Of a stretch of 64,000 nt of DNA, positions 429 to 53,677 are shown piece by piece; the first letter of the stretch is position 1; every line of letters starts with the position of its first letter. This DNA comes from an uncultured Microthrixaceae bacterium (GTDB lineage Bacteria > Actinomycetota > Acidimicrobiia > Acidimicrobiales > DATDAH01): contig CAVRXU010000007.1 in the NCBI GenBank assembly GCA_963725155.1, positions 320,131 to 384,130 on the forward strand. Reading direction: 5' to 3'. The position numbers and the translations under genes were made by a program. The notes under the pieces are model-generated. The model made no database searches. It saw only the letters and a program-made list of their open reading frames with translations, and was not told the DNA's origin.

Positions 429-2150
429 ATGACGAGCTGGTCGGCACGACGCTGGATGCTGCGGATGGGAGCCCTGCTCCTGGCCTTCGGGCTGATCGCC
501 GCGGCATGCGGGGGCAGCGGCGACTCGGGCGGCGACGACGCCAGTGGCGACAACCCCCGGGGCGAGGAGTCCAGCGACCCCGACGACGGGGCCGAGCCGC
601 AGCGCGGTGGCTCGATCATCTTCGCCAGGGAGGCGGAGACCTCCAGCCCCTGGACACCCTCGGCCATGATCTGCGACGTGGCCTGCCACCAGGCCATCAA
701 GGGCATCTACGACACCTTGACCTGGCCCGACGCCGACGGCGAGGTCCACGGGATGCTGCTCGAGTCCATCGAGCCCAACGCCGACTTCACGGAGTGGACC
801 CTCACTCCCCGTGACGGCATCCAGTTCCACGACGGCACCCCCTGGGACGTGGCCGCCCTCGACACCCACTTCTCGACGATGCGGGACTCGGTGCTGGTCG
901 GCAACGTGTTCAACGACATCACGGACCAGCAGGTCCAGGGCAACACCCTGGTCCTGACGATGCGCAACCCGTGGACGCACTTCCCGCTGTTCCTGTCGGG
1001 TCAGCCGGGCTATGTGGCCTCGCCGACCTGGCTGGCCGCCGTGGCCGACGGCTCCGCCTCGGAGGCCGAGCCCGTCGGCACCGGGCCGTTCGAGTTCGAG
1101 GCCTACTCCCCCGGCGACAGCTTCTCGATGACCCGCAACGAGAACTACTGGCTGATCGCCCCCGACGGCGAGCCGTACCCGTACCTGGACGAGATCGAGT
1201 TCCTGGTGCAGGACGAGAACCAGACCCGGGACAACGCCATCATCTCCGGCGACATCGACATCACCCACATGGACTCGGGTGACTCCATCGAGCGCCTCCG
1301 TCAGGAGGCCGACAACGGCACGATCAACCTCTTCGAGATCGACCAGCGTCAGGAGACGGGCTACGTCCTGATCAACTCCTCGGACCCGAATGCCGCGGTC
1401 AGCGACGTCCGGATCCGTCAGGCCATGGCCTACGCGTTCGACCACGTGGTGGAGAACCAGTCCCGCAACGCCGGCATCTTCGAGATCGCCAACGGGCCCT
1501 TCTCCCCCGGCTCCATCGGCTACCTGGACGACACCGGCTTCCCGGAGTTCGACCTCGAACAGGCCACGGCTCTGGTGGACGAGTACGAGTCCGACACGGG
1601 CCGGGAGGCGACGATCGCCTACAAGACGACCACGGACCCGTTCAACCTGCAGACGGCCGAGCTCTACCGCGGCTTCTGGGAAGCGGCGGGCATGACCGTC
1701 ACCCTCGACCAGATCGAGCAGGGCGAGTTCATCACCCAGGCCCTGATCGGCAACTTCGAGGCCTTCGGCTGGCGCAACCACGGCGGCTTCGACCCCGACA
1801 CCCAGGAGGTGTGGTGGACGAGCGAGAACGCCCTCCCCGCCGGGGAGATCGCGTTGAACTTCGGCCGCATCGACGACCCGGTGATCGACGAGAACCTGGA
1901 CATCGTCCGGGAGAGCCAGGACCCGGCCGAGCGCCAGGCCGCGGCCGAGGAGATCAACCGGCAGTTCGGTGAGCAGGTGTACAACATCTGGACCAGCTGG
2001 ATCATCTGGGCCATCCCCTATCAGGACCGGGTCCACGGCGTGCAGACCCCGGTCGTCATGCCCGACGGGACACCCTCGACGGTGACGGGCATCGGGTTCA
2101 CCGGCGCCATCAACCTGCAGCAGCTCTGGGTGGACGACGCCGGCACCTGA
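429..2150 (+). CDS. ABC transporter substrate-binding lipoprotein, family 5 (peptide/nickel, OppA/DppA-like)
   Basis: ORF 390..2150. I place the start at ATG 429: MTSWSARRWMLRMGALLLAFGLIAAAC is a signal peptide plus lipobox, and a GGGGGAG RBS lies upstream. Size and sequence fit a family-5 SBP. It is the first gene of a 5-gene ABC operon. Confidence 0.85.
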   Translation: MTSWSARRWMLRMGALLLAFGLIAAACGGSGDSGGDDASGDNPRGEESSDPDDGAEPQRGGSIIFAREAETSSPWTPSAMICDVACHQAIKGIYDTLTWPDADGEVHGMLLESIEPNADFTEWTLTPRDGIQFHDGTPWDVAALDTHFSTMRDSVLVGNVFNDITDQQVQGNTLVLTMRNPWTHFPLFLSGQPGYVASPTWLAAVADGSASEAEPVGTGPFEFEAYSPGDSFSMTRNENYWLIAPDGEPYPYLDEIEFLVQDENQTRDNAIISGDIDITHMDSGDSIERLRQEADNGTINLFEIDQRQETGYVLINSSDPNAAVSDVRIRQAMAYAFDHVVENQSRNAGIFEIANGPFSPGSIGYLDDTGFPEFDLEQATALVDEYESDTGREATIAYKTTTDPFNLQTAELYRGFWEAAGMTVTLDQIEQGEFITQALIGNFEAFGWRNHGGFDPDTQEVWWTSENALPAGEIALNFGRIDDPVIDENLDIVRESQDPAERQAAAEEINRQFGEQVYNIWTSWIIWAIPYQDRVHGVQTPVVMPDGTPSTVTGIGFTGAINLQQLWVDDAGT

Positions 2151-3144: not shown

Positions 3145-4081
3145 AGCCGGAACGCTCCACGCCGGAGGCAGCGGTGGCATCATCACCGAGTCGTCGGCCG
3201 AGGTGGCCCTCGACGCCATACGGGAGGGCGACACCGAGCGCGAGGTCAAGAAGCTCGGCCTCGGCTTCTGGATCGCGGTGGGTTGGCTGGCCCTGCTCAT
3301 CACGCTGGCCGTCCTCGCTCCCGTCCTGCCCTTCATCGAGGACCCCAACGTCTCCAACGCCGACGCCCTCGAGGCTCCGCCGTCCGCCGAGCACTGGTTC
3401 GGAGGCGACGACATCGGCCGGGACGTCTTCTCCCGGGTGATCTGGGGTGGGCGGGTCTCCCTGTTCATCGGGCTGGCCGCCGTCTCGTTCGGCTTCGTGA
3501 TCGGGGGCACGATGGGGCTGACCGCCGGGTTCTACGGGGGGCGCTACGAACGGGTCGTCATCGGCGCGATGGACATCATGTTGGCCTTCCCCGCGCTCGT
3601 ACTCGCCCTGGCCCTGGTCACCTTCCTGTCGGAGCCCGGGACCCAGAACGCGACCCTGGGCACGGTCACCCTCGTCTTGACCATCCTGGCCATTCCCGCG
3701 CTCGCGCGGATCACGCGGGCGGCGACGTTGTCGTTCTCCCAACGCGAGTTCGTGACCGCATCCCGCGCCCTCGGGGCCCGCAACAGCCGGATCATCGCCC
3801 GGGAGATCCTGCCCAACGTGGTGCCCCCCATGGCGGCCTTCGCCCTCATCGCCATCGCCATCGTCATCGTGGCGGAGGGCGCCTTGAGCTTCCTCGGCTT
3901 GTCGGTGGCCTCCCCCACGGCCACGTGGGGCAACATCATCGAGCAGGGTCGCCAAGGCCTCGACGACACGCCATGGATCTCGCTCTTCCCGTGCGCCGTC
4001 ATGTTCCTCACCCTCCTGTCGTTCAACTACGTGGGCGACCAGCTCCGGCGCTACTTCGACGTGAAGGAGGTCAACCTCTGA
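3125..4081 (+). CDS. ABC transporter permease (OppC/DppC-like)
   Basis: 318-aa polytopic protein with the motif REFVTASRALGARNSRIIAREILPNV. It overlaps the upstream gene by 20 nt, and its stop overlaps the next start (TGATG). Confidence 0.85.
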   Translation: MPAPSPEAGTLHAGGSGGIITESSAEVALDAIREGDTEREVKKLGLGFWIAVGWLALLITLAVLAPVLPFIEDPNVSNADALEAPPSAEHWFGGDDIGRDVFSRVIWGGRVSLFIGLAAVSFGFVIGGTMGLTAGFYGGRYERVVIGAMDIMLAFPALVLALALVTFLSEPGTQNATLGTVTLVLTILAIPALARITRAATLSFSQREFVTASRALGARNSRIIAREILPNVVPPMAAFALIAIAIVIVAEGALSFLGLSVASPTATWGNIIEQGRQGLDDTPWISLFPCAVMFLTLLSFNYVGDQLRRYFDVKEVNL

Positions 4082-5169
4082 TGCGCAGGGGTCGACGGCA
4101 GGTCGTGCTGGCGCGGTCCGACGTCGACGCGAACGTCCCCCTCCTCGAGGTCGTGGACCTCCGTACCCACTTCCTGACCGAGACCGGAACCGTCCGGGCC
4201 GTCGACGGGGTCAGCTTCACCCTCGACCGGGGCCGGACGCTCGGGGTCGTCGGCGAGTCCGGCTCCGGCAAGACGATCCTGTCCCGGTCGATCATGGGCC
4301 TCCTCCCGACCCGCAACGTCGTGCGGACCGGCAGTGCGAAGTACGAGGGCACCGAGGTGGCCGGCGCCGGGCCCGAGGAGATGCGCGGCCTGTGGGGCAC
4401 CGAGATGGCCATGGTCTTCCAGGACCCGATGACCTCCCTCAACCCCGTGATGACCGTGGGCAACCAGATCACCGAGTCGTTGCGCTACCACCTCGACATG
4501 GAGAAGGGCGAGGCCCGGGAGACCGCCATCGCCCTCCTGCGCTCCGTGGGGATTCCCGAGCCGGCCCAGCGGGTGAAGGAGTACCCCCACCAGCTCTCCG
4601 GAGGCATGCGCCAGCGCGTGATGATCGCCATCGCCCTGGCCTGCGGCCCCCGCCTGCTGCTGGCGGACGAGCCCACCACTGCGCTCGACGTCACGGTCCA
4701 GGCCCAGATCCTGGACCTCCTTCAGGCCCAGCAGACCGAGCGCCACATGGCGATGATCCTGGTCACCCACGACCTCGGCGTCGTGGCCGGCCGGGCCGAC
4801 GACATCGCGGTGATGTACGCGGGCAAGGTGGTCGAGAAGGCACCGACCAACGTGCTCTTCAGCTCGACGCGACACCCGTACACCGAGGCCCTGCTGAAGT
4901 CGATCCCCAAGCTGGAGCACACCAGCCACACCCGGCTGGCGGTGATCCCGGGCCGACCGCCGGACCTGGTCTCGCCGCCCGAAGGCTGCAACTTCAGCCC
5001 TCGCTGTCCGTACGCCCAGCCCAAGTGCTTCGTGGAGGAACCCGAGCTCGAGCCCGGTCCCGGCGGAGGCCACGAGTTCGCCTGCTGGTTCCCGGTGGGC
5101 ACCCCGGAGGGCACCGAGGCCCTGGCCCGCAACGCGAACGCCGCCGCCGTCAGCGAAGGGGTCGCCTGA
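4081..5169 (+). CDS. ABC transporter ATP-binding protein (OppD/DppD-like)
   Basis: Real start is ATG 4081; the long ORF 3283..5169 is an upstream extension. Walker A GESGSGKT, signature LSGGMRQR, Walker [13 protein letters not shown], and the C-terminal oligopeptide-transporter motif [11 protein letters not shown] are present. Confidence 0.9.
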
Positions 5170-8148: not shown

Positions 8149-8436
8149 ATGGTCGGCTACGAGGTGGTGTTCAAGGACAAGACGGTGGAGCGGATCTTCG
8201 GCGCCGACGCCTACGCCCAGGAAGGGCCGATGACGACCTTCTTCGAGCGGGCGCCGGGTCGTCAGGTCGTGGACTGCTGGAGCAACCGTGTGGCCAGCCT
8301 GCGCACCCAGGACATCCTGATCATCCGCCGTGAAGCAGGCTGCGCAGTGGGACCGGAGCAGCTCGGTGGACCTTCAGCTTCGGCGACGCCGGACGTGCTG
8401 AGCGAAGCGACGCCAGTCGACTGTCATGGCACGTAG
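8149..8436 (+). CDS. Hypothetical small protein (95 aa); the C-terminal ~28 aa are encoded by a repeat element
   Basis: Internal ATG of ORF 7870..8436. The N-terminal 60 aa (MVGYEVVFKDKTVERIFGADAYAQEGPMTTFFERAPGRQVVDCWSNRVASLRTQDILIIRRE) have protein-like composition. I recognise no family. Confidence 0.35.
   Translation: MVGYEVVFKDKTVERIFGADAYAQEGPMTTFFERAPGRQVVDCWSNRVASLRTQDILIIRREAGCAVGPEQLGGPSASATPDVLSEATPVDCHGT
8345..8425. repeat. Dispersed copy of the 99-bp GC-rich repeat family (see 25461-25763)
   Basis: By-eye alignment: gcgcagtgggaccggagcagctcggtggaccttcagcttcggcgacgccggacgtgctgagcgaagcgacgccagtcga versus the unit gcggagtcggagcggagcagctcagcggaccctcgggatcggcggcgccggagttgctgagcgaagcgaagccactcaga. 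Confidence 0.6.
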
Positions 8437-14844: not shown

Positions 14845-16187
14845 CGGGCGGGCCAACGACGCAACAGGCCGTCGGCGCCGACTCCGGCGACGACCACGAG
14901 GGCCACATCGGCCGGGACCCGGTAGCGGGTGATGCCGAAGGTGATGGCTGCGGCCAGGGCGACGACCACGACCGTGCTGAGGACGGGGATGAGCGTGATG
15001 CCCCGCCGGTGGAGGAGCACGCCGCCATAGAGGCCGAGGGGCAGGAGGGCGTAGTAGGCCCAGAGCCCGACGGTCGACGCCGCCTTGCCCCGACCTTCCA
15101 GCCACCAGTTGAGGAACACGTTCTGGCCCGGCTTGAAGACGTCGAACACCCGGCCCACCCGGGCCACCGCCACCAGGGGCAGGCGGCTCAGGTGGTCGTA
15201 GAAGTAGTCGTCGGACTCGTCGAGCAACTCGGCCTCGCGGACGGACTCGTCGGCCTCGTCCAGTTCGAGGGGCGGATCGGTGCCGATGCAGTTGGCGTGG
15301 TAGCCGATGTACTCGCCGTAGTAGGTGCTGTCGCAGCTGGCGTCGCTCATCACCGATCCGGCGCTGTTGGTCAGGAACACGGGCTCGTCGAAGCGGATCA
15401 GGTTGAACGCCACCCACGGCAGGAGCACCAGGGCACCGACCACCGCGCCGACCGCGACGAACCCGAAGCGCTCCTTCCACGACCGCCCCGGTAGCCGCAG
15501 GGCCAGCAGGGCGACGAGCACGACGAAGAAGAAGATCCCTTCGGTGCGGGTGAGCGCAGCGGCGCCGGTCGCGGCGGCCAGGGCGGCCATGGACCCGGGG
15601 GTCGGCTGGTCCCAGAAGCGGTGAGCCAGCAGCAGCATCACGGCGATGATCAAGGCGTAGAGGGACTCCGCCTGCAGCATCCCGTCGTTGATCCAGAGCA
15701 TCGGGTACAGCGCGGCGGCGCCCGCGGCCAGGAGCCCGGCGCGGGGACCGGCCAGGCGGCGGGCCAGGACGCCGATGACCACGACGGTGGCCACCCCGAG
15801 GACCCCCGAGGCGAGCCGGTGCGTCGTCGCCGACTGGAGGCCCACGGCGGAGAGCAGCCCGAGGACGGTCGAATAGCCGGGGGGATGGGACGCGCTGTCG
15901 GCCAGCTGGTGGGTCTGGAGGAACCAGTAGGGGTGGGCGAACAGGTGGCCGTCACCGAGGAGCAGGCCCTGGACGTGGTAGTAGGTGGCGTCGCCGGCCA
16001 GGCGGAAACAGGAGCCCGCACCGGTCACCGGCGGGTCGCACGTGGGGCGCACGACGAGCACCAGGACCCAGCGCACGGCCAGCGCCACGGCCGCGATGGT
16101 GCCCAGCGCCCACGCGAAGGGTTTGGCCGCCGGCCCCGCGTCCCGCCAGAATCGCTGGGGTGAAGGCATCTCTGGCAACCGTAGCAA
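14808..16187 (-). CDS. GT-C membrane glycosyltransferase (ArnT/GT39-like), paralog 2 of 4
   Basis: Motifs YPMLWINDGMLQAESL, LTRTE, CDSTYYGEYIGYHANC, TRYRVPADVALV. The start could instead be ATG 16169. Confidence 0.7.
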   Translation of the reverse strand: MLRLPEMPSPQRFWRDAGPAAKPFAWALGTIAAVALAVRWVLVLVVRPTCDPPVTGAGSCFRLAGDATYYHVQGLLLGDGHLFAHPYWFLQTHQLADSASHPPGYSTVLGLLSAVGLQSATTHRLASGVLGVATVVVIGVLARRLAGPRAGLLAAGAAALYPMLWINDGMLQAESLYALIIAVMLLLAHRFWDQPTPGSMAALAAATGAAALTRTEGIFFFVVLVALLALRLPGRSWKERFGFVAVGAVVGALVLLPWVAFNLIRFDEPVFLTNSAGSVMSDASCDSTYYGEYIGYHANCIGTDPPLELDEADESVREAELLDESDDYFYDHLSRLPLVAVARVGRVFDVFKPGQNVFLNWWLEGRGKAASTVGLWAYYALLPLGLYGGVLLHRRGITLIPVLSTVVVVALAAAITFGITRYRVPADVALVVVAGVGADGLLRRWPARQAAAQPPGGSS

Positions 16188-19882: not shown

Positions 19883-21279
19883 GCCGGGGCCTCCACGGGC
19901 TCGGGGTCCGGGTCGTCGGCGGGCTCAGGTTCGGCCATCGGCCAGCGTCGGCGCAACACCACCTCGAGGCCCACCGCCGCGGCCACCACCAGGGCCACGT
20001 CGGCGGGGATCCGGTACCGGGTGGTGCCGAACGTCCATGCCGCGGTGACCGAGATCATCACCGCCATCCCCACGAGGGGGCTGATGGGCAGGCCTCGCCG
20101 CTTGAGGGCGACCACGCCGCCCACGGCGAACGGGAGGAGGGCGTAGTAGGTGACCAGGGCCAACTCCGAGGTTCGTTTGCCCCGGGCCTCCAGCTGCCAG
20201 TTGAAGCGGACGTTCTGCAGCGGGCGGTAGAGGTCCCACATGCGGGCCACCCGGGCGACCATCACGACCGGGAGGCGACCGAGGTGGTCCCGGATGTAGG
20301 TCTGGGCCCGCTCTCCCGCCACGGCCGCCCGCTGGGACTCGTCGTAGCCCCGGAGCCGCTCCTGGGCCTCGGGCACGGTCAGGCCCTCGTCGGCCGCGTA
20401 GTCCTCGATCACGAAGCAGTTGCCGTAGAAGCCGAGCTGCTCGCCGTAGTAGGTGGCGTCGCAGCTGGCCGTGTCCAGCACCGGCCCGGGGGCGGTGGAC
20501 AGGGTGGTCGGGTCCTCGAAACGGGTCAGGTTCCAGGCCACCCAGGGGCCCAGGAGCAGGACCGCGGCGGCTCCGGCGAGGGCCACGTGCACGAGGCGCT
20601 CGCGCCAGGTTCGCACCGCGCCGAGGATCAGCGGCAGCGCCACGAGGGCGTACAGCAGAAGGGACTCGGCTCGGGTGAGTGCGGTCAGCGCGATCACGAG
20701 GCCCAGGAGGGCGATGCGCCGTCGGGTGGGGTCTCGCCGGTAGCGGTAGGCGGCCAGGATCGTGAGGGCGATCAGCAGCGTGGCCAGGCTCTCCACCTGG
20801 AGCAGGAAGTCGTTGATCCAGAGGTTCGGGTACAGGGCCCCGATGGCGGCGGCGATGAGCCCGGCTCGCCAACCGAGCAGGTCCCGTCCGATGAGGCCCA
20901 GCACCACGACGGTGAGCGCGCCGAGGAGGGCGGCTGCTAGTCGATGGGTGTCGACGCCCTGTCCGCCGAGGGCCGAGACCACTCCGAGGTACATCGGGAA
21001 CAGGGGCATCTTGTGGGCGCTGGGTCGCTCTTCACCGGTGCTGGCGTAGGTGAACGGGTCGATGAAGGGTTTGCCGTCGGCCAGCAGGTTCCCCACCTCG
21101 TGGAGGTAGCGGGGGTCGTTGACGACGTTCGCCCCGCCCGTGATGGCCAGGCACCCCGGCGGTCCGTCCTCGGCCGGGTCCCCGCACTCCGGGCGCATCT
21201 CCAGGATCCAGAACCACCGCAGGCCGAGCCCGAGCAGGGCGATGCCGGCCAGGGCGAAGGCGAAGCGTCGGTTGCTCAC
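19879..21279 (-). CDS. GT-C membrane glycosyltransferase (ArnT/GT39-like), paralog 3 of 4
   Basis: Start set at GTG 21279 (GTGA overlap with the upstream stop); the ORF-track extension to 21588 overlaps paralog 4. Motifs YPNLWINDFLLQVESL, LTRAE, CDATYYGEQLGFYGNC, TRYRIPADVALV. Confidence 0.7.
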   Translation of the reverse strand: MSNRRFAFALAGIALLGLGLRWFWILEMRPECGDPAEDGPPGCLAITGGANVVNDPRYLHEVGNLLADGKPFIDPFTYASTGEERPSAHKMPLFPMYLGVVSALGGQGVDTHRLAAALLGALTVVVLGLIGRDLLGWRAGLIAAAIGALYPNLWINDFLLQVESLATLLIALTILAAYRYRRDPTRRRIALLGLVIALTALTRAESLLLYALVALPLILGAVRTWRERLVHVALAGAAAVLLLGPWVAWNLTRFEDPTTLSTAPGPVLDTASCDATYYGEQLGFYGNCFVIEDYAADEGLTVPEAQERLRGYDESQRAAVAGERAQTYIRDHLGRLPVVMVARVARMWDLYRPLQNVRFNWQLEARGKRTSELALVTYYALLPFAVGGVVALKRRGLPISPLVGMAVMISVTAAWTFGTTRYRIPADVALVVAAAVGLEVVLRRRWPMAEPEPADDPDPEPVEAPA

Positions 21280-22589
21280 GCTTCGACGGGGGCGTCCCGC
21301 AGGGTCACCCAGGCCAGCCCCAGGCCGGCCAACATGCACAGTGCCACTTCTGCGGGGACCCGGTACCGGGTGATGCCGAAGGTGGTGGCGGCGGTGAAGG
21401 TGACGAGCACGAACGGAGAGACCAGGGGGATGATCGTCACCCGCCGCCGCCAGAGGAGCACGACTCCGGCCACCGCGATGGGCAGCATCAGGTAGTACTG
21501 GCCGAGGGCGAACCGGGCCTCGTCGAGCCCCCGACGTTCGAAGAACCGGTCGAATTCGACCCCCTGATCGGTCCGGTACACCTGCCACATCCGTCCCACG
21601 CGGGCGAGGGCCACGCGGGGCAGCGCCCCGAGGTGGTCCTCCATGTAGGCCGTGGCCTTCTCACGGTGGATGGTGTCGATCTGGGACTCATCGCCGGAGA
21701 ACTCGGCCGGGGCACAGTCGATGTTCCAGTAGCCGAAGAAGTCCCCGGAGTAGGTCTTGTCGCAGTTGCCGAAGGCCAGGACCCGGCCGCTGCCGGTCGC
21801 CAGGTAGGGCGGGGCCGGCTCCTCGAAGCGCAGGAGGTTGCTGATCATCCAGGGCGCCATCAGGGCCAGGGCGACCGTGCCCGAGACGATGGCCAATCCG
21901 GCCCGCTGGCCCCAGGTGCGGTCACGGAGCATGACGGCGAGGGGCAGGACCAGGCCGGGCAGGAGGAGGAGGCCCTCGCTGCGGGTGAGCGTGGCGATGC
22001 CCACGGCCCCGCCGAGGAGGGCGGCGCTCCGCCAGGACGGCGATCGCCAGAAGCGGTAACCGGCCAGGATCACCAACGCCGCGAGCCCGGCGTAGAGCGA
22101 CTCGGAGAGGATGAGCGCGTCGTTGATCCAGAGGTTGGGGTAGATGGCGGCCAGGAAGGCGGCCAGGAGCCCGGCCCGATCACCTCCTCGCTCCCCCAAC
22201 CCGGCCCAGCGCCCGATCATGCGGGCACCGATCCCGATCAGGCCGACGGCGGCTGCGCCGGCGATGCCGCTCGCCAGCCGATTGGAGAGCGGGCTGTCCA
22301 ATCCGATGAGGCCGTACGCCGCCAGGTAGAGCACGTAGCCCGGCGGGTGACCGGCCGAAGGCTCGTAGACGGGGGGGCCACCGGCCTCGATCGAGTCCCG
22401 CCACACGAACGGCTCGTAGAAGCCGCCGTGGTCCAGGAGCAGCTTGGCCTGGGTGTGGTAGGCGTAGTTGTCGTCGAGGTCCAGGGTCAGGTCGCCGTAG
22501 TGGGCGAAGACGGCGATCCAGCGGACGGCCAACGCCAGGAGGACGAGCAGGAGGAGGCGGGCGGGAAACCCGCGGAATCGGCTCCGCAT
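21276..22589 (-). CDS. GT-C membrane glycosyltransferase (ArnT/GT39-like), paralog 4 of 4
   Basis: Motifs YPNLWINDALILSESL, LTRSE, CDKTYSGDFFGYWNIDC, TRYRVPAEVALC. Confidence 0.7.
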   Translation of the reverse strand: MRSRFRGFPARLLLLVLLALAVRWIAVFAHYGDLTLDLDDNYAYHTQAKLLLDHGGFYEPFVWRDSIEAGGPPVYEPSAGHPPGYVLYLAAYGLIGLDSPLSNRLASGIAGAAAVGLIGIGARMIGRWAGLGERGGDRAGLLAAFLAAIYPNLWINDALILSESLYAGLAALVILAGYRFWRSPSWRSAALLGGAVGIATLTRSEGLLLLPGLVLPLAVMLRDRTWGQRAGLAIVSGTVALALMAPWMISNLLRFEEPAPPYLATGSGRVLAFGNCDKTYSGDFFGYWNIDCAPAEFSGDESQIDTIHREKATAYMEDHLGALPRVALARVGRMWQVYRTDQGVEFDRFFERRGLDEARFALGQYYLMLPIAVAGVVLLWRRRVTIIPLVSPFVLVTFTAATTFGITRYRVPAEVALCMLAGLGLAWVTLRDAPVEA

Positions 22590-24299: not shown

Positions 24300-24691
24300 G
24301 TCCACGGGCCCAACTCCTGGTCATGGCCATCGTGGCCTTCTCGCTGCTCTTCATCCTGCGCCTGGTGCGCCGGCGCAAGCTGCAGGGCAAGTACGCCCTG
24401 CTCTGGGTGGGCGTCGGCCTGTTCCTCGGTGCCTTCGCTCTCGTCCCCGACGTCCTCGTGCCCATCTCCGACTGGGTGGGCATCGCCTACGAGCCGGCGG
24501 TGTTCTTCCTGGCCGCCATCGCCTTCCTCTTCCTGATGGTCGTCCACTTCTCCTTCGAGCTGTCCCGCTCCGAGGAGCGCACGAGGACGCTGGCCGAGGA
24601 GGTCGCCCTGCTCAAGGCCCGCATGGACAAGACCGATCCCCCGCTCGACCGGACCCCGACGGCGCCCGTCGACGACGCGCCGGAGGACTGA
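24296..24691 (+). CDS. DUF2304-family small membrane protein
   Basis: ATG 24296 overlaps the upstream stop (ATGA). Three or four TM helices, the RLVRRRKLQGKYALLW motif, and a C-terminal coiled segment. Typical partner of this GT2 type. Confidence 0.65.
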   Translation: MSPRAQLLVMAIVAFSLLFILRLVRRRKLQGKYALLWVGVGLFLGAFALVPDVLVPISDWVGIAYEPAVFFLAAIAFLFLMVVHFSFELSRSEERTRTLAEEVALLKARMDKTDPPLDRTPTAPVDDAPED

Positions 24692-24709
24692 GCCCCGCCT
24701 CGGCGGCCG

Positions 24710-25441
24710 CTATCGGGTCGATCGGGCGGTGACGATGAGGCCGTCGGCGACGAAGGGGGCCCAGAGCCGGCCGATGGTGCGCTCCAACCAGAGGACGAAG
24801 CGGCCGGCGAGGCCCAGGACCCGCTGGCGCAGCCCCGACCCGGGGGCGGCCTTCACGGCGGGTACGAATGTGGCCGTGGCCACGATCTCCCAGCCGTGGC
24901 GGCCCATGAGGTTGGACAGGGTGCGCCAGCTGAAGAGGACGACGTGGTCGGGATGGTTGATCTCGGCCCCCGCCATCGCGGCGAAGCCGTTGAGCAGGCC
25001 CGAGGCGTTGGGGGTGGTCAGGATGAGGGTGCCGCCGGGGGCCAGCAGGCGGTGCAGGCCGTCGAGGAACGAACCCGGATCGTCGAGGTGTTCGATGACC
25101 TCGCCGGCCACGACCACCTCCGCGGGATCGATGCCGAGGGCGTCGATCTGGTCGGGGTCCCGGCAGTCGGCCACGTAGGCCTCGTAGCCCTGCTCGGTGG
25201 CCAGGGCCACCCCCGCCTCGTCCAGGTCGATGCCGACCAGGCTGGTGGCGGACTCGGCCAGGTGGGCGTGGAGCCAGGTGCCGGCCTCGGCCTGCATCTC
25301 CTGGTAGCCGGCGTCGACGAAGCCGACGTGGATCACCCGACGCCCGCGGACCTGGCCGGCCACGTGGGGGATGCGCTGCACCAGCTGCGCCTTCGGCAGC
25401 CGGTGCACCATCTCGAGCTGAGCCTCGTCGGACGCGGACAC
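24710..25441 (-). CDS. Class I SAM-dependent methyltransferase
   Basis: GTG start at 25441. Motif I VIHVGFVDAG is atypical; LVGIDLD and the post-I/II region VVVAGEVIEHLDDPGSFLDGLHRLLAPGGTLILTTPN are present. Confidence 0.75.
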   Translation of the reverse strand: MSASDEAQLEMVHRLPKAQLVQRIPHVAGQVRGRRVIHVGFVDAGYQEMQAEAGTWLHAHLAESATSLVGIDLDEAGVALATEQGYEAYVADCRDPDQIDALGIDPAEVVVAGEVIEHLDDPGSFLDGLHRLLAPGGTLILTTPNASGLLNGFAAMAGAEINHPDHVVLFSWRTLSNLMGRHGWEIVATATFVPAVKAAPGSGLRQRVLGLAGRFVLWLERTIGRLWAPFVADGLIVTARSTR

Positions 25442-25460
25442 GGCCGGTCACCGTACCGGT

Positions 25461-25763
25461 AGCGTGACGTTGCGGAGTCGGAGCGGAGCAGCTCAGTGGA
25501 CCCTCGGGATCGGCGGCGCCGGAGTTGCTGAGCGAAGCGAAGCCACTCAGATGGGCTGGAGCGTGACGTTGCGGAGTCGGAGCGGAGCAGCTCAGCGGAC
25601 CCTCGGGATCGGCGGCGCCGGAGTTGCTGAGCGAAGCGAAGCCACTCAGATGGGCTGGAGCGTGACGTTGCGGAGTCGGAGCGGAGCAGCTCAGCGGACC
25701 CTCGGGATCGGCGGCGCCGGAGTTGCTGAGCGAAGCGAAGCCACTCAGATGTAGCTGTAGCGT
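25461..25763. repeat. Tandem repeat, 3.06 copies of a 99-bp unit
   Basis: Units at 25461-25559, 25560-25658 and 25659-25757, plus 6 nt of a fourth. The only difference is T versus C at 25497, apart from the 3' end of unit 3. The array lies between divergent start codons at 25441 and 25779. Confidence 0.95.
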
Positions 25764-25778
25764 GCTCCACCGCTCGTC

Positions 25779-28700
25779 GTGATGCCTCCCCGTACCTCCT
25801 CCGTCTTGACGCGCCTGCGCCGCAGCGTCCCGCTGCTGCTCCTGGCGGCCGTCACCTACCTGCCCCTGGTCTTCACCCAGCCGGGCCAGGTCGGCGCGGA
25901 CACGAAGACCTACCTGTACCTCGATCCGGGCCGCCTCCTGCGGGACGCCGCCTTCCTGTGGGATCCCGGGGTCGGCCTGGGCGGGGTGACCCACCAGGTC
26001 ATCGGCTACCTCTGGCCGATGGGGCCCTTCTACTGGTTCTTCGACGCCATCGGCGTGCCCGACTGGATGGCGCAGCGCCTGTGGCTGGGCAGTCTGATGT
26101 TCGCCGCGGGCGCGGGTGTCCTCTACCTCCTCCGCACCCTCGGCTGGCCCGACCGACCGGCCGACCACGACGACGCGAAGCCCTCTTCGGCGACCTGGTG
26201 GGACGCGGGCATGGTCGTGGCCGCCCTGGCCTACGCCCTGAGCCCATACGTCCTGGACTACGCGGCCCGGATCTCGGTGATCCTGCTGCCGTGGGCCGGG
26301 CTCCCGTGGCTCATCGCCTTCCTGGCCCGGGCCATCCGGGTCGGCGGGTGGCGCTACCCGGCGGCCTTCGCCCTGGTGACGCTGACCATCAGCAGCACCA
26401 ACCTGACCTCGGTCGTGCTCGTGGGCATCGGCCCGATCCTCTGGGTCGCCTTCGCGGTCTGGATCGAGCGGGAGGTGCCCTTCCGCCAGGCCTTGGGCGC
26501 GGTGTGGCGCACCGGGCTGCTGACCGTCGGCGTGTCCCTCTGGTGGTTCGTCGGTCTGGTCGTGGAAGGCCGCTACGGGATCCCCATCGTCCGCTACACC
26601 GAGACCTACCAGGCCGTGGCGGTGGCCTCCACGACCCCGGAGGTCATCCGCGGCCTCGGCTACTGGTTCTTCTACGGGAACGACAAGCTCGGCCAGTGGA
26701 TCATCCCGAGCATCCACTACATGCGCTACGGCATCCCGCTGTCGTTCGCCCTGCCGATCTTCGCCTTCCTCTCCGGTGCCCTGACCCGCTTCCGGCACCG
26801 GCTCTTCTTCATCACCCTGATCGTGATCGGGGCCGTGATGGCGGTCGGCGGCCACCCCTACGACGATCCGTCACCGGCAGGTGGCCTGCTGGTGGCATGG
26901 ACCAAGACCGACCTCGGGCTGGCCTTCCGGAGCACGGCCCGCGTGCTGCCGCTGCTCGTGCTGGGGACCTCAGTCCTCCTCGGCACGGGCGTGGTGGCCC
27001 TCGGGCGCCGACTCCCCCGCTTGGCCACGCCGATCGGGGTGCTGGCGGTGATCCTGGTCATCGCCAACCTGCCTGCGCCTTGGGTCGGCCAGATGGTGGA
27101 CCGGAACCTGCGCCGCGACGAGGACCTGCCCGACTACTGGGTCGACGCCGCCGCCCATCTCGACGCCCGGGACGACGGCACCCGCGTCCTCGAGCTACCG
27201 GGCACGGACTTCGCCGCCTACCGCTGGGGCAACACCGTCGACCCGATCACGCCGGGCCTGATGGACCGCCCGTACGTGGCCCGGGAGCTGATCCCCCTGG
27301 GCACACCGGTCGCCGCCAACCTGGTCAACGCCATCGACCGGCCGCTGCAGGAGGGCACCTTCGACCCCGACGCCTTGGCCCCCCTGGCCCGTCTCATCGG
27401 CGTGGGCGACATCGTGCTCCGCTCCGACCTCGAGTACGAGCGTTTCCGCACGCCCCGCCCGGAGACCACGTGGGCGCTGCTCCGGTCCGTCCCAGGGCTG
27501 GGTGAGCCGGTGGCCTTCGGCGAAGCGGTCGAGAACCAGCCCCGTGAACAGTTGCCGCTGTTGGACGAGATCGAGCTGGCCACCGACCAGACCCTCGAGG
27601 ACCCACCCCCCGTCGCCGTCTTCCCGGTCGATGACGCCGCCCCGATCGTGCGGGCCCTGCCCGCCGAGCATCCCATCGTGGTCTCCGGCGACGGTGACGG
27701 CCTGGTGGCCGCCACCGCGGCCGGGGTGATCGACCCCGACCGGGCGATCCTGTACAGCGCCGGCCTCCTCGACGAGGACGACCCAGCGATGTTCGACACC
27801 GTCCTGGACCAGGGCGCCGACGTCGTCATCACCGACTCCAACCGGCGTCGGGCCCGGCGCTGGGGGGCCATCCGGGAGAACGAGGGCTACACCGAGATGG
27901 CCGGCGAGGAGGCCCTCGAGTACGACGTGGGCGACGCCCGCCTCGACGTCTTCCCCGGCGCGTCCGACGACAGCTTCACGGTCGCCGTACAGCGCGGCGG
28001 GGCCACGATCCAGGCCAGCGCCTACGGCAACCCCGTCAGCTACACCCCAGGCGACCGGGCCTTCTTCGCCATGGACGGCGACCCCCGTACCGCCTGGAAG
28101 GTCGGGGCCTTCGCGAGGTCGAAGGCGAGTACCTCCGGATCACGACCGACGAACCGGTGACCACGGACCACATCGGCCTGACCCAGCCCCTGTCGACCGA
28201 CATCAACCGCTGGATCACCGAGGTCGAGCTGCGCTTCGACGGCGGCGATCCCGTGCGCGTGGACCTGACCGAGGCCTCCCGCACCCGTCCGGGCCAGGTC
28301 GTGGAGTTCCCCGAGCGGACCTTCCAGCGCCTCGACATCGAGATCCTGGCCGACACCATCGGCTTCCGGCCGAAGCTGGCCGGCGTCAGTGCGGTGGGCT
28401 TCTCCGAGGTCGATCTCGAGGGCCTGCAGCTCGAGGAGCTGATCCGTCCGCCGGTTGACCTCGTCGACGCCGTTGACGGCGATCTGACCGACCACCGCCT
28501 GAGCTACGTGCTCCAGCGCCAGCGCACCAACCCGGCCGAGCCCGTCCGGGTCGATGAGGAGCCGAGCATGCGCCGCCTGCTCGACGTCCCCGGTGAGCGG
28601 ACGTTCGAGCTCGACGGCGAGGCCCGCATCTCGGCCCAGGCCCCCGATCCGATGGTGGACCGCCTCCTGGGCCTGCCCGGCGCCGGCGCCGGTGGCCTCA

Positions 28701-30142
28701 CCGCCCGTTCCTCGGCCCATCTGGCCGGCTCGCTGGCCGCCCGGGCCTCCTCCGCGTTGGACGGGGACCCGTCGACCGCCTGGACGACGCCCTTCAACTC
28801 CCTCATGGGCCAGTACATGGAGGTCGAGTTGCCTGAGGCGCGGACCGTGGACCACCTGGACCTCCAGGTCGTGGCCGACGGCCGTCACTCGGTTCCCACC
28901 CGGATTCGCCTCACCGCAGGGGACGAATCCCGGGAGTTGACGGTGCCGCGGCTCCACGCCGGCGCCCGACCGGGGGCGGTGACCGACGTCCCGCTCGCGT
29001 TCGACCCCCTGGAGGGCGACACGTTCCGCCTCACCGTGCTCGAGGCTCGGCGGGCCACGACCATCGACTGGTACAGCGGTGGCCCCGCCATCCTCCCGAT
29101 CGGCATCGCCGAGATGGGCCTGCCCGGCGTCGTCCGGCCGGTGCCGCCCGAGGACGTGAGCGACCGCTGCCGCGACGACCTCCTGACCGTCGACGGCGAG
29201 CCGGTATCGGTCAGCCTCTCGGGCACGACCACCGATGCCGAGGCTCGACTGCCGCTCGCCCTCGAGGCCTGCGCCGGTCCCATCACGGCGTCGGGCGAGA
29301 CCGACCTCGTCGCCGCCGAGGGTCAGGACACTGGCCTGGACATCGACGCCCTCACCCTTTCCTCCGGTCCCGATGGCGGTGCCGCCGCTCCCGGGGTCAC
29401 GGGCACGGTGCCGCCCCCTCCATCGGTCGATCTCGAGACGCCCCACCTGCTCGAGTACCGGACCGAGGCCGACACCGACGAGCCGTACTGGTTGGCCGTC
29501 GGGCAGAGCTACGGGCCGGAATGGGCCGCCGATGCCGAGGGCGGCGAGATCCTCGGCCACGAGATCGTGTCCGGCTTCGCCAATGGCTGGTACGTCCAGC
29601 CCGACGGTGACGGTCCGGTCGCCGTGACCGTCACCTGGCCCCCGCAGCGACCGATCTGGCTGGCGATCGCGATCTCCCTCGTGGCGCTGTTGCTGTGCGG
29701 CATCGCCCTCGTGTTCGACCGCCGGCGGGCCAACCAGCCCGCCCGCGACCGGGCGCCGGCCATCACCCTGCTCTGGCCCCCGGCTCCGGAACGGCAGCTC
29801 GTGGCCGGTCGACCCGCCGTCGTGGCGATCGCCGGTGCCGCGGTCGGCGGCTGGTTGCTGGCCACGCCGGTGGTGGCCCTTGCCCTGGCCGTCGCCATGG
29901 CCGCGACGCTGCGGTGGCGGTGGGGCTCGCTCACCGTCCGCTTGGGCGCCGTGCTGGTCGTCCTCGGAGCCAGCCTCTACATCTTCACCAAGCAGTTGAC
30001 CGACAACCTGCCGCCGGACTTCGGCTGGCCCCAGAACTTCGACGCCGCCCACTGGGTGACCATGGGCGCCGTACTCGCCCTCGGCGTCGATGCTGTGGCC
30101 GAGTTGGTCCGGAGTCGGAGCCACTGGCGGATCGGGTCATGA
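25779..30142 (+). pseudogene. AftD-like / DUF3367 alpha-(1->3)-arabinofuranosyltransferase-family GT-C protein (~1450 aa), split by a -1 frameshift near 28115
   Basis: N-terminus ...YLPLVFTQPGQVGADTKTYLYLDPGRLL...WDPGVGLGGVTHQ is typical of this family. ORF 25779..28160 and ORF 28157..30142 join seamlessly (..DGDPRTAWKVGAFA|EVEGEYLRITTDEPVTTDHIGL..) if one base is restored. Confidence 0.7.
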
Positions 30143-31164
30143 AGCGGGTCGCGGTGGTCGTCGGTGTCCTGGTGGTCGTCGTCGTGCTGGCCGAGGTCGG
30201 GGCCCGGGCCTTTTCGCCCTACCTGCCTGAGCCATCCCTCTGGACCGACGACACCACCACCGTCAAGGTGGCCCAGCTCGACGCCCGGGCCTGTGTGGAC
30301 CTGGTCTTCGCCGGCAACTCGATGACCCGGGACGGCCTCGACCCGGTGGCGTTCGGCGAGGCCGACGCCGAGGACCGGATCACCTACAACGCCGCCCTCG
30401 ACGCCGCCACCCCCGCCCTGCTCCAGCGGTGGGTGCTGGACGAGGTCGATCCGCGGGTCGATCCCGACGGCGTCGTCCTCGGCCTCTCCAGCTTCGACCT
30501 GAACGACAACGCGGCCATCGGGCAGTCCGCCCTCGAGGCCTACGACAGTGCCCCCCTCAGCCGGGACGACATCTTCGGCCGGCTTCAGGCGCCCTTCATC
30601 GAGCACCTGGACCTGTTCCGCTACCGCAACCAGCTCCGGGACCCCGAGGTGGTCTGGGACGGCTTGGGGGCGTGGCGGGACGGTGACCGACAGCCCCGGC
30701 TGGGCCCTGATGGCCTGGAGGGGCTCCTGGGCCCGGAAGGTCAGGGTCTTTCGCGCCGCGACCTGAACTACGAGCCCAGCCCGCTGACGGAGCGCTTCGC
30801 CCAGAACGAGCTGCTCAACGACTTCCACCTCGGGGGGGAGCAGACCGAGGCGGCCGAGGACCTCCTGGCCGGCCTGGCCGACCGGGACGTCGACACCGCC
30901 GTGGTCGTCCTCCCGGTGACCCAGGACTACGTCGACCTCCACCCCGGGGGCAGGGCCCAGTACGACGAGTTCCTGGCCCTGGCCGAGCGCATCGCCACCG
31001 AGAACGGCGCCGAGTTCATCGACCTCCACGATCTGGCCCCCGACGACTCCTGGTTCGCCGACACCCACCACCTCAACGCCACCGGCTCCGCCGCCCTCAG
31101 CCAGGCCCTCCCCGCCCTCCTCGGCCCCGACTTCGCCCAGGGCAGCAGATGTGAAAGCGGCTGA
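30139..31164 (+). CDS. Membrane-anchored SGNH-like (DltD/AlgX-type) esterase or acyltransferase
   Basis: ATG 30139 overlaps the AftD-like stop (ATGA). N-terminal TM anchor, FAGNSMT (Ser block), and FADTHHLNATGSAALS (DxxH block). Confidence 0.45.
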   Translation: MKRVAVVVGVLVVVVVLAEVGARAFSPYLPEPSLWTDDTTTVKVAQLDARACVDLVFAGNSMTRDGLDPVAFGEADAEDRITYNAALDAATPALLQRWVLDEVDPRVDPDGVVLGLSSFDLNDNAAIGQSALEAYDSAPLSRDDIFGRLQAPFIEHLDLFRYRNQLRDPEVVWDGLGAWRDGDRQPRLGPDGLEGLLGPEGQGLSRRDLNYEPSPLTERFAQNELLNDFHLGGEQTEAAEDLLAGLADRDVDTAVVVLPVTQDYVDLHPGGRAQYDEFLALAERIATENGAEFIDLHDLAPDDSWFADTHHLNATGSAALSQALPALLGPDFAQGSRCESG

Positions 31165-31383
31165 GGGACCTTCCGCTTCGGTGCAGCCTGCTGAGCGCAG
31201 CGAAGCCAGTCAGTCAGATGTCACGGGAGCGAAGCACTCCGCCGACCTTCCGCCGGTGGGTGACGCTGCGCAGCGGAGCGGAGCGGCTCGGTGACCCCTG
31301 AGCTTCGGCGGAGCCGGACTTGCTGAGCGCAGCGAAGCCAGTCAGATGTAACTGAGCGCAGCGAAGCCAGTCACATGTAGCCG
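31145..31383. repeat. About 2.5 degenerate copies of the GC-rich repeat family, filling a convergent intergenic region
   Basis: The core gctgagcgcagcgaagccagtca occurs 3 times. The full left arm gtgacgctgcgcagcggagcggagcggctcggtgacccctgagcttcggcggagccgga occurs once. Confidence 0.7.
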
Positions 31384-43903: not shown

Positions 43904-43918
43904 GAACGCCGGAGGCTA

Positions 43919-43965
43919 ACTACGCTGCGGCGTCGGAGCGAAGCAGCTCGGCCGAGGATCGTCGC
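43919..43965. repeat. Partial (left-arm) copy of the GC-rich repeat family, followed by a small hairpin gctgcc-gta-ggcagc
   Basis: acgctgcggcgtcggagcgaagcagctcggccgaggatcg versus the unit acgttgcggagtcggagcggagcagctcagcggaccctcgggatcg. Confidence 0.5.
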
Positions 43966-44021
43966 AAGCTGCCGTAGGCAGCAGGAGCCGCGCGGGCGGC
44001 GACGAGGGGCATGGCCCGCAC

Positions 44022-53266: not shown

Positions 53267-53326
53267 TCGTTCTGGTTGCACCCAGCCGCGGCGGACCGCG
53301 GGGAGATGCAACCAGAACGGTGATCA
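53264..53326. terminator. Nested hairpin spanning the convergent stop codons; likely bidirectional terminator
   Basis: cgttctggttgca (53268-53280) pairs with tgcaaccagaacg (53307-53319). The outer tgatc/gatca arms contain both stop codons. The loop contains ccgcgg-cgga-ccgcgg. There is no U-tract. Confidence 0.55.
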
Positions 53327-53677
53327 GCTGAGCTCGTCGACGCCGATCGGGCGCATGGCCAGGTCGATGGCGGTCCAGAGGGTGCGGGAGATGGGTTGGA
53401 AGATCAGCGGCGTCAGCGCGGCCACACCCACGCAGACCCACAGGAGCGCGGCGGGCGGCGAGTCCGGGTAGCTGGCGGTGAAGCCGCCGACGATCACGCC
53501 GAGCAGCACCAGCAGGGCCAGGATCGTGTTCATGGCGATGGCGCCGATCCAGTGGCCCTCGATGCGTTCGAAGTGCAGGTCGCAGCGGGGGCAGTCGTCC
53601 TTCATGATCAGCCACCAGGTGAACACGTGGCCCGACCCGCAGAGCGGGCAGCGGCGCCCGAAGGCCCGCCCGATCAT
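53324..53677 (-). CDS. DUF983-family membrane protein (Cys4 zinc-ribbon plus 2 TM helices)
   Basis: CPLCG...CPRCD followed by HWIGAIAMN and two TM helices. The start is uncertain: ATG 53677 or an upstream GTG. Confidence 0.6.
   Translation of the reverse strand: MIGRAFGRRCPLCGSGHVFTWWLIMKDDCPRCDLHFERIEGHWIGAIAMNTILALLVLLGVIVGGFTASYPDSPPAALLWVCVGVAALTPLIFQPISRTLWTAIDLAMRPIGVDELS

Follow-up and report, generated by a model that had tools for sequence, protein, structure and literature searches.

The intergenic gap between a class I S-adenosylmethionine (SAM)-dependent methyltransferase gene and an AftD-like glycosyltransferase gene in the DNA of an uncultured Microthrixaceae bacterium (GenBank assembly GCA_963725155.1, contig CAVRXU010000007.1, positions 320,131 to 384,130; 64,000 nt, hereafter the window, numbered from its first letter) contains a tandem array that was shown to consist of three head-to-tail copies of a non-coding, structured interspersed repeat of approximately 97 nt. 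The family to which these copies belong is dispersed, non-coding and strand-specifically structured, and has been inserted independently more than once; its entry at this locus is recent, and its copy number here varies between near-identical strains. What looked like a promoter variable-number tandem repeat (VNTR) is best read as a repeat that recently invaded the control region ahead of a cell-envelope glycosyltransferase gene, a region that is divergent and very compact. Overall, the likely explanation is a structured interspersed repeat that was recently inserted here, was amplified to varying copy number, and works at the DNA level.

Tandem Repeats Finder (TRF) places the array at 25461-25764 (period 99, 3.1 copies, 98% matches, 0 indels, score 578), and the second-best array anywhere in the window scores 107. 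Unit 1 (25461-25559, as delimited by TRF), unit 2 (25560-25658) and unit 3 (25659-25757) all lie on the plus strand, where the covariance model described below matches them at 25463-25560 (84.3 bits), 25562-25659 (83.9 bits) and 25661-25758 (92.2 bits). The original prediction, made from the letters of the window, held that position 25497 is the sole difference within the array. Units 1 and 2 do differ there only (T and C, respectively), but unit 3 is 94% identical to unit 1: its final nine bases are ATGTAGCTG where unit 1 has ATGGGCTGG, so that its 3′ end reads ...CAGATGTAGCTG as against ...CAGATGGGCTGG. The six nucleotides that had been taken for the start of a fourth unit (AGCGTG) belong to a 7-bp direct duplication, TAGCGTG, that brackets the array. 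The 337-bp gap from GTG 25441 (minus strand) to GTG 25779 (plus strand) was correct by sequence and by an open reading frame (ORF) check, and the identities given for the flanking genes were borne out by Pfam matches to Methyltransf_23 (1.3e-16) and GT-C_AftD (1e-92).

A dispersed non-coding repeat family

The array is non-coding. Its G+C content is 0.66-0.70 at every codon position in all frames, compared with 0.70-0.75, 0.46-0.50 and 0.94-0.95 at the three positions of neighboring genes (0.75, 0.46 and 0.95 in the methyltransferase gene), and a 96-residue ORF that runs through it (25464-25754) has no match in Pfam.

The repeat had been described from this locus alone; the unit also occurs elsewhere in the window, as part of a dispersed structured family. 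A 26-nt core is found five times in the window, compared with 0.00 expected from 100 shuffles, and the repeat finder placed further copies of the 99-nt unit at 8331-8429 (74%) and 31256-31354 (67%), with partial copies beside the latter. A covariance model was built from a MAFFT alignment of 35 copies (A3). It delimits a single copy between convergent genes at 8333-8430 (85.6 bits) and a compound site, also between convergent genes, at 31136-31383, which comprises a partial copy (31136-31221), a full copy (31259-31355) and an extra hairpin corresponding to the third hairpin of the element, P3, only (31350-31377). The site orthologous to 31136-31383 carries a single copy both in a 90%-identical contig of the Acidimicrobiales metagenome-assembled genome (MAG) SMAG_U91 (locus L030) and in L108, so the P3 hairpin can evidently duplicate alone. 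A degenerate remnant of the 5′ half (ACGCTGCGGCGTCGGAGCGAAGCAGC...) lies at 43918-43991, in the gap between two minus-strand genes, and gives a weak model match (E = 0.53). Every family copy in the window is on the plus strand. Two further candidates were rejected: window 53282-53360 is a weak model match with an unconvincing alignment, and L030 7146-7233 is a short repeat with no relation to the family. Direct repeats of 68-80% identity at 14899-15056, 19991-20148 and 21340-21497 (also 15684-15743, 20809-20868 and 22119-22178) mark three paralogous minus-strand genes of approximately 440-570 residues upstream of the glycosyltransferase cluster.

Beyond the window, a scan of one genome per prokaryotic species located a 22-nt core (GCTGAGCGMAGCGAMGCCASTC) at 32 loci, 31 of them in six species: five uncultured Microthrixaceae species known from MAGs and one Acidimicrobiales MAG. 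Several of these loci are tandem arrays with spacings of 73, 79, 96 and 97 bp. Exact-core sites number 2 to 7 per MAG, with diverged copies in addition, and the same core pattern was found in 67 metagenome contigs or loci. Applied to approximately 654 kb of fetched DNA, the covariance model identifies 109 copies (E ≤ 1e-10). The hosts belong to the Microthrixaceae/Acidimicrobiales in the class Acidimicrobiia; the window itself is approximately 90% identical to the SMAG_U91 contig over 8 kb. No family match was found in plasmid and phage collections. Rfam 15 has no match at gathering thresholds across the whole window, and over 25400-25800 at E ≤ 10 it gives chance-level matches only, under 15 bits.

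The genes around each copy were oriented with a crude home-made test of codon-position G+C over 300 nt on each side, which was confident on both flanks at 51 sites. Of these, 26 lie between convergent genes, nine between co-directional genes to which the element is sense (+,+), nine between co-directional genes to which it is antisense (-,-), and seven between divergent genes; a smaller first set of sites gave 18 convergent, 8 and 9 co-directional, and 4 divergent. Co-directional and convergent sites thus account for 44 of the 51, and divergent, promoter-containing sites such as the studied locus are a minority. Stop codons of flanking genes often fall inside the element termini; the convergent gene on the downstream side has its stop 4 or 11 nt inside the 3′ end in 15 of 27 cases. 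Because co-directional sites split evenly between sense and antisense, orientation appears untied to transcription; on three large contigs, the orientations of copies are mixed within tens of kilobases. A relation to replication was considered and set aside: in 31 of 42 cases the element strand has a positive local GC skew, but this measure is confounded, as local skew follows the gene strand. The sole inverted pair noticed consists of two copies 43 nt apart in L107 (1221-1318, minus strand, and 1361-1457, plus strand).

Fold, covariation and constraint

The 35-copy alignment combines an invariant core with clear covariation, and its analysis with RNAalifold yields a fold of three hairpins on one strand. 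P1 is GCUGC/GCAGC around a GC-GGA-GC mini-hairpin, P2 is CGGC-NNN-GCCG, and P3 is GA[C/G]U...A[G/C]UC around GCU-GA-GC-G(C/A)A-GC-GA-AGC. In unit 2 of the array, where the hairpins are backed by covariation, the P1 stem pairs 25568-25572 with 25587-25591 and encloses the inner GC-GGA-GC hairpin at 25576-25583, P2 occupies 25610-25620 (CGGC-GGC-GCCG), and P3 occupies 25621-25647 (GAGT..GCT-GA-GC-GAA-GC-GA-AGC..ACTC).

A four-stem structure, specified by hand, was scored on alignment A3 (35 copies A2/A3). Paired cells amount to 91.2%, compared with 22-57% when the partners are slid by 1 to 3 columns, and the 31 compensatory cells were equaled in none of 500 shuffles. With 102 distinct copies, 91.6% of cells pair, two-sided changes are seen in 16 of 26 pairs, and compensatory cells number 98 (shuffled, 31 ± 4; slid controls, 10-39). 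The clearest covarying pair, 70-158, is C-G in 64 of the 102 copies and G-C in 37. Stem P0, which closes the structure, is weak, with 65% of its cells paired. On the modeled strand, G.U pairs (50) exceed A.C mismatches (21), which indicates that the fold is strand-specific.

The P3 loop is GCA in 79 copies, GAA in 21 and GGA in one, is always closed by a C-G pair, and sits above a tandem GA/GA present in 102 of 102 copies; the P1 inner hairpin GC-GGA-GC is present in 87 of 102. The P3 tip (GC-GCA-GC or GC-GAA-GC) and the P1 inner hairpin are exact instances of the mini-hairpin motif GCGNAGC, and the window units contain two overlapping GCGAAGC motifs (GCGAAGCGAAGC). As DNA, GCGNAGC mini-hairpins have an extraordinary stability, which is considerably lower in the RNA form (PMC13037366, PMC3201870). 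Two other pairings were tried and discarded. A stem of GCUCAGCGG with UUGCUGAGC, suggested by RNAfold for the window units, is not general, its 5′ partner lying in the variable segment and being non-complementary in most copies; and in a long-range pairing of 5′ GCTGCGC with 3′ GCGCAGC, the C/A variation at the loop position is uncompensated. One copy, in L105 (2734-2893), has a 66-nt insertion exactly in the P3 loop. Outside the host class, the scan for the 22-nt core also returned an isolated perfect hairpin with the same core as P3 (GACTGGCTGAGCGCAGCGAAGCCAGTC) from the alphaproteobacterium Rhodopseudomonas rhenobacensis (L011, 4487-4513), where it follows a terminator-like hairpin just past a stop codon; chance (approximately one database match is expected), convergence or a local repetitive extragenic palindromic (REP) sequence are possible origins.

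Comparison of loci with similar flanks shows how the family behaves over time. L007 and L027, whose flanks are approximately 91% identical, both have the element in one and the same spacer; the two copies are oppositely oriented, with about 45 nt between their positions, and therefore represent independent insertions. Tandem amplification is a family trait: in a flank-anchored comparison of all fetched loci, orthologous sites have one versus three, one versus two, one versus four, and zero versus three units. Since the periods differ and some units are internal fragments of the element, such as a 79-nt unit in L001, slippage or unequal recombination fits better than serial transposition. Clean empty sites were found at the studied locus only; the other candidates among the fetched loci are eroded remnants. 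Paralogues inside one MAG are 74-89% identical, which makes the family an old one.

Orthologous copies are about as similar to each other as their mostly coding flanks, but the differences are very unevenly distributed. Over 22 orthologous pairs, the P1-P3 stems differ at 2.1% of positions, the loops, linkers and tails at 16%, P0 at 27% and the variable segment at 32%; the flanks differ at roughly 11%. Three two-sided changes kept pairing, while nine one-sided changes lost a pair. This distribution points to purifying selection that acts on resident copies and not solely on a master copy.

History of the methyltransferase-AftD locus

The methyltransferase gene occupies 24710-25441 on the minus strand, as identified by Pfam and homologues, and the AftD-like GT-C glycosyltransferase gene 25779-30142 on the plus strand, with ATG 25782 as its probable start. 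An identical methyltransferase protein is encoded on a contig of a same-species assembly (ENA ERZ25039524 contig_12150; L033), which matches the window from 25760 to 28532 but for one 1-nt indel and is 98.9-99.7% identical elsewhere. Its array has two units, not three, with a period of 100. The internal junction of L033 is ATGTGGCTGG, whereas both internal junctions of the window are ATGGGCTGG, so the period of 99 in the window corresponds to 100 minus a 1-nt deletion that predates the last duplication. Unit 1 of the window shares its T at 25497 with unit 1 of L033, and unit 3 has the ancestral 3′ end ...CAGATGTAGCTG, which is also the end of the last L033 unit. VNTR behavior, which had been anticipated for the array, is therefore supported, with two units in place of three in the same species and 0 to 4 at orthologous sites of the family. 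The periodicity in multiples of three, to which significance had been attached, is an accident of the 1-nt loss: the same-species period is 100, others are 73, 79, 96, 97 and approximately 114, and codon-position G+C gives no signal.

That the array is recent was also foreseen correctly. Eleven orthologous contigs from sister species, with methyltransferases 86-95% identical (L034-L037 and L039-L044 among them), have no covariance-model match at the site, and in the element-free contigs the two start codons are just 39-74 bp apart. Five of them (L039-L043) have a perfect 16-bp palindrome, ACGCTACCGGTAGCGT, between the genes, and L034 has a one-base variant. Each half of the palindrome is an outward-facing TANNNT hexamer. 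One is separated by 8 nt from the GTG of the methyltransferase gene and the other by 15-18 nt from the ATG of AftD, and the two could be back-to-back -10 elements of near-leaderless promoters or, alternatively, an operator. The palindrome was found at the orthologous site only: no further match with up to two mismatches occurs in the window and no exact match at non-orthologous fetched loci, and there is no evidence that it is a regulon motif.

Comparison of the empty site, ...CCG(C/G)TAGCGTG|CT... (...TAGCGTG|CTCC...), with the window, ...CCGGTAGCGTG-array-TAGCGTG-CTCC..., reveals that the array is bracketed by the 7-bp direct duplication, and that the repeated unit is the element plus one copy of TAGCGTG. 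The array thus derives from a recent insertion, flanked by the duplicated sequence, that was followed by VNTR-like amplification. Relative to the empty sites of L034 and L039-L043, the left copy (25460-25466, plus strand) contributes TAGCGT, a TANNNT hexamer resembling a -10 element and pointing into the array, and the right copy (25758-25764, plus strand) lies 17 nt before ATG 25782, the position relative to the gene that it has in element-free relatives. The remnant of the palindrome (ACCGTACCGGTAGCGT, 25450-25465) gives TACGGT on the minus strand, with the methyltransferase GTG 8 nt downstream of it. The corresponding hexamer of both internal junctions is GAGCGT, outside the TANNNT pattern. 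It had been reasoned that both promoters must lie within or across the array; this does not follow, given that relatives have a control region of 39-74 bp in all, and that the -10-like hexamer beside each gene would have been kept outside the array through the duplication of TAGCGT(G).

The site may have been entered more than once. In L038, from a more distant species, a single element sits at this palindrome; its 3′ junction (GATGTAGCGG|TAGCGTG) is shared but its 5′ junction is not. This suggests that either a second, targeted insertion took place or an old insertion was precisely lost elsewhere. L035, L036, L037 and L044 have an unrelated G+C-rich insertion of 27-32 nt (CGCCYGCCCCCAGGGGTCGGGCCCGCC) with repeated CCGGT flanks in mid-palindrome. 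On this evidence, the palindrome appears to be an insertion hot spot.

Some further features of the locus were noted. L033 has an extra gene of 321 residues (AbiEi_4/DUF559; 3825-4790) between the methyltransferase and DUF2304 genes, which are 19 bp apart in the window (approximately 24691-24710); this is a strain-level insertion or deletion beside the array. The methyltransferase start, and hence its leader length, is uncertain (25411-25441), as several close homologues are annotated 10 codons shorter and GACGAGG precedes ATG 25411. A 1-nt deletion at 28112 divides the AftD-like gene into ORFs of 793 and 661 residues (GGGCCTTC-GCGAGG, compared with GGGCCTTCAGCGAGG in L033, where a single gene of 1453 residues is present); the cause is either an indel error of long reads or a true frameshift in this envelope glycosyltransferase gene.

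Explanations and relation to known repeat systems

The element entered the 39-74-bp divergent control region right next to the conserved 16-bp palindrome, and TAGCGTG is now duplicated on both sides. According to the explanation that we favor, the array would then have grown from one to two to three units by slipped-strand mispairing or unequal recombination, aided by the flanking direct repeat and the hairpins, with the 1-nt deletion that changed the period from 100 to 99 bp preceding the last duplication. The insertion may be tolerated because the duplication leaves a TANNNT hexamer beside each gene, the palindrome and the methyltransferase hexamer staying intact on the other side. The array would separate the two core promoters and replace their upstream regions. 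As the left TAGCGT keeps its native upstream context, a second AftD transcript may arise from it, led by approximately 310 nt of structured sequence, and array copy number could matter for AftD. The family itself would act as folded single-stranded or cruciform DNA, which a protein specific for both sequence and structure would recognize, much as happens with REP sequences. A role at the DNA level is suggested by the C-G-closed GNA triloops, by the random orientation, by the combination of an invariant P3 with covarying flanking pairs, and by stems that evolve approximately fivefold slower than flanking genes at orthologous sites.

Several observations weigh against this explanation or some part of it. 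Folding of single copies is no more stable than that of shuffles (Z of 0 to +2 with RNA and DNA parameters on both strands), and since nearest-neighbor folding thus gives no stability signal, it is covariation and not energy that carries the structure. The 102-copy alignment (A4) was fitted to the model, although an independent MAFFT alignment agrees, and P0 may be a by-product of the TGA/TCA stop codons of convergent genes in the element termini. The argument for DNA over RNA is indirect, as G.U/G.T wobbles fit either nucleic acid, and the 9-versus-9 count of orientations is small. No binding protein or transposase was identified in the sole search made, a tblastn of approximately 0.7 Mb of fetched DNA with an IS200 TnpA query; that it found no IS200-type transposase below E = 0.5 is a weak negative. 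The 7-bp duplication occurs at the sole datable insertion, older copies having no consistent flanking target duplication, and a direct 7-bp duplication is not a product of HUH/Y1 enzymes (RAYT, IS200-type). The difference between two and three units rests on two assemblies, and the small indels in unit 1 of L033 are possibly consensus errors. Lastly, the putative promoters (TANNNT hexamers and near-leaderless starts) were assigned from sequence and conservation in relatives, and a scan of 25300-25900 for sigma-70 and terminator consensus sequences found nothing.

The most serious competitor, though we think it improbable, is a structured RNA element: a 3′-UTR (untranslated region) or intercistronic module, serving as a bidirectional terminator without a U-tract or as a block to 3′ exonucleases, or else a multicopy small-RNA gene, which at the studied locus would supply a long structured AftD leader. 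In its favor are the strong, strand-specific covariation with more G.U than A.C and the strong conservation of the stems in situ; half of the sites are convergent, with stop codons within the element ends, and the array lies on the AftD sense strand with the left TAGCGT pointing into it. Against it, the co-directional sites split into nine sense and nine antisense, and RNA of the complementary strand cannot form the GNA loops or the wobbles. The scan of 25300-25900 also revealed no U-tract or terminator-like site, no conserved promoter is present in or before the unit, even a threshold of E = 10 brings no Rfam match, the RNA folds no more stably than shuffled sequence, and C-G-closed GNA triloops are a DNA-type motif and not the GNRA or UNCG tetraloops usual in RNA. 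An ordinary MITE (miniature transposable element with inverted repeats), that is, a deletion derivative of an insertion sequence mobilized by a DDE transposase acting on its ends and leaving a target-site duplication of fixed length, is somewhat less plausible still. The TAGCGTG duplication at the datable insertion, an 8-bp flanking direct repeat in L031 (CGGCGGTC), short inverted termini (GTGAC...GTCAC) in many copies and independent insertions in one spacer are all in keeping with a MITE. The inverted termini extend for only about 5 bp, though, with 65% of cells paired, most copies are without a flanking direct repeat, and the strongest conservation is in internal hairpins and not in the ends. 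No parent element or transposase was found in the approximately 0.7 Mb of fetched DNA (a weak test), and old paralogues (74-89% identity) are structurally maintained in situ, unlike a dead MITE.

The remaining alternatives concern the array itself. The original prediction, a locus-specific regulatory VNTR that arose from duplicated native promoter DNA and tunes both genes by copy number, agrees with the difference in copy number between near-identical strains and with the place of the array between divergent genes. The unit is foreign to the locus, being missing in eleven orthologous contigs and found at over 100 unrelated sites, which contradicts such an origin, and divergent sites make up only seven of 51 in the family; we give this explanation very little weight. 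It is harder still to credit an assembly artefact, in which the repeat was over-expanded or collapsed. The source is probably a long-read metagenome assembly, there is a 1-nt AftD indel relative to L033 and there are small indels in unit 1 of L033, and a contig from short reads breaks off approximately 30 nt into the array, 48 nt upstream of where the methyltransferase gene starts. Two independent assemblies nevertheless contain the array with identical flanks and the same terminal unit, arrays of two to four units occur at several sites in other MAGs and metagenomes (an identical three-unit array is present in the independent records L001 and L094), and long reads far exceed 300 bp. A coding repeat of 33 codons, producing a 96-residue small protein (25464-25754) or an N-terminal extension, can be practically dismissed: the ORF is indeed open across all three units, but it is contradicted by the lack of both codon-position G+C asymmetry and a Pfam match, by the period of 100 in L033 and other periods that are not multiples of 3, and by its own end 24 nt before the AftD start.

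A bolder version of the DNA-level explanation, which we consider possible but doubtful, is that the family is a new Actinomycetota element, a module of three hairpins built of GC-GNA-GC mini-hairpins, with a dedicated protein that reads it as folded single-stranded or cruciform DNA, integration at palindromes, strong purifying selection by the host, and a 7-bp duplication of the -10 box that spares both genes. Targeting of palindromes is suggested by two apparently separate events at the same 16-bp palindrome together with the enrichment of convergent gene ends, where terminator palindromes occur. If the mini-hairpin reading is true, a well-studied physico-chemical motif becomes tied to a genome-wide element, and a hairpin-recognizing protein is implied; if the family is RNA instead, it is a new candidate for Rfam. 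In either case, the repeats define a previously undescribed structured family, present in no curated library, in an uncultured and environmentally abundant actinobacterial lineage. Because its copy number varies among co-occurring strains, the studied locus could help to tell strains apart and could offer a natural experiment in how much a promoter tolerates.

The likeness to mycobacterial interspersed repetitive units (MIRUs) that was pointed out for the array holds in part. MIRU features and definitions are taken here as summarized in PMC3184786 and PMC12548453. Both are actinobacterial, measure about 40-100 bp, are interspersed at tens of sites and contain G+C-rich internal inverted repeats, and both have empty and filled orthologous sites, a short direct repeat and a strain-variable tandem number. 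In size, dispersal and copy number, the family resembles MIRUs well, with a length of approximately 97-99 nt, 2 to 7 exact-core sites per MAG, and 0, 2 or 3 units at this locus and 0 to 4 elsewhere. The likeness fails for operon position, gene orientation and coupled ORFs. MIRUs lie inside polycistronic operons in the orientation of the genes, whereas the family is mostly found between convergent genes and is free in orientation; the internal ORF of MIRUs is coupled to the flanking stop and start codons, whereas the array ORF stops at 25754, 24 nt short of AftD. The family also belongs to Acidimicrobiia and not to Mycobacterium, has periods that are not multiples of 3, and forms three covarying hairpins with GNA loops. 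This distinction is drawn from host and described features.

REP sequences and bacterial interspersed mosaic elements (BIMEs), of which the features and the GTAG/CGTC definitions follow PMC3733652 (a survey that did not report Actinobacteria), are similar in other respects. They are extragenic repeats that form hairpins and lie for the most part downstream of genes, in spacers where the ORFs are convergent or co-directional, as are 44 of the 51 sites here; they have G.T pairs in their stems, form clusters that are reiterated in tandem with flanking DNA, and are structured on one DNA strand, with a conservation that suggests recognition by a protein. A REP is, however, a single palindrome of 20-40 bp, not a module of approximately 97 nt with three covarying hairpins, and its GTAG/CGTC tag is present in more than 90% of members, whereas GTAG is found in nine of 102 family copies (3′ tags GTCA, 29; GTGA, 21; GTTA, 10; GTAG, 9; GTAA, 7). 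REPs often form inverted dimers and usually exceed 100 copies, whereas the family consists mostly of singletons and direct tandems with few exact-core sites per MAG. A RAYT, which was not found for the family in the weak tblastn of approximately 0.7 Mb of fetched DNA, would also not account for the 7-bp duplication at the sole datable insertion.

The d(GCGNAGC) DNA mini-hairpin is a physico-chemical motif of phage origins, the priming site ssiA and phage N4 promoters, and not a repeat family; the exact motifs in P1 and P3 suggest that the family elements form such mini-hairpins. Pneumococcal BOX and enterobacterial ERIC sequences are non-autonomous intergenic repeats, modular or about 100-130 nt long, with a stable predicted structure and sub-modules that can be duplicated in tandem. 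The P3-only copy at 31350-31377 resembles their duplication of sub-modules, while the phyla differ and no relationship in sequence is known; we know of no description of a GNA-triloop architecture, or of such conservation of stems in situ, for BOX or ERIC. The family behaves like MIRU-VNTRs and like REP/BIME clusters, membership of neither is supported, and it is filed as a structured interspersed intergenic repeat.

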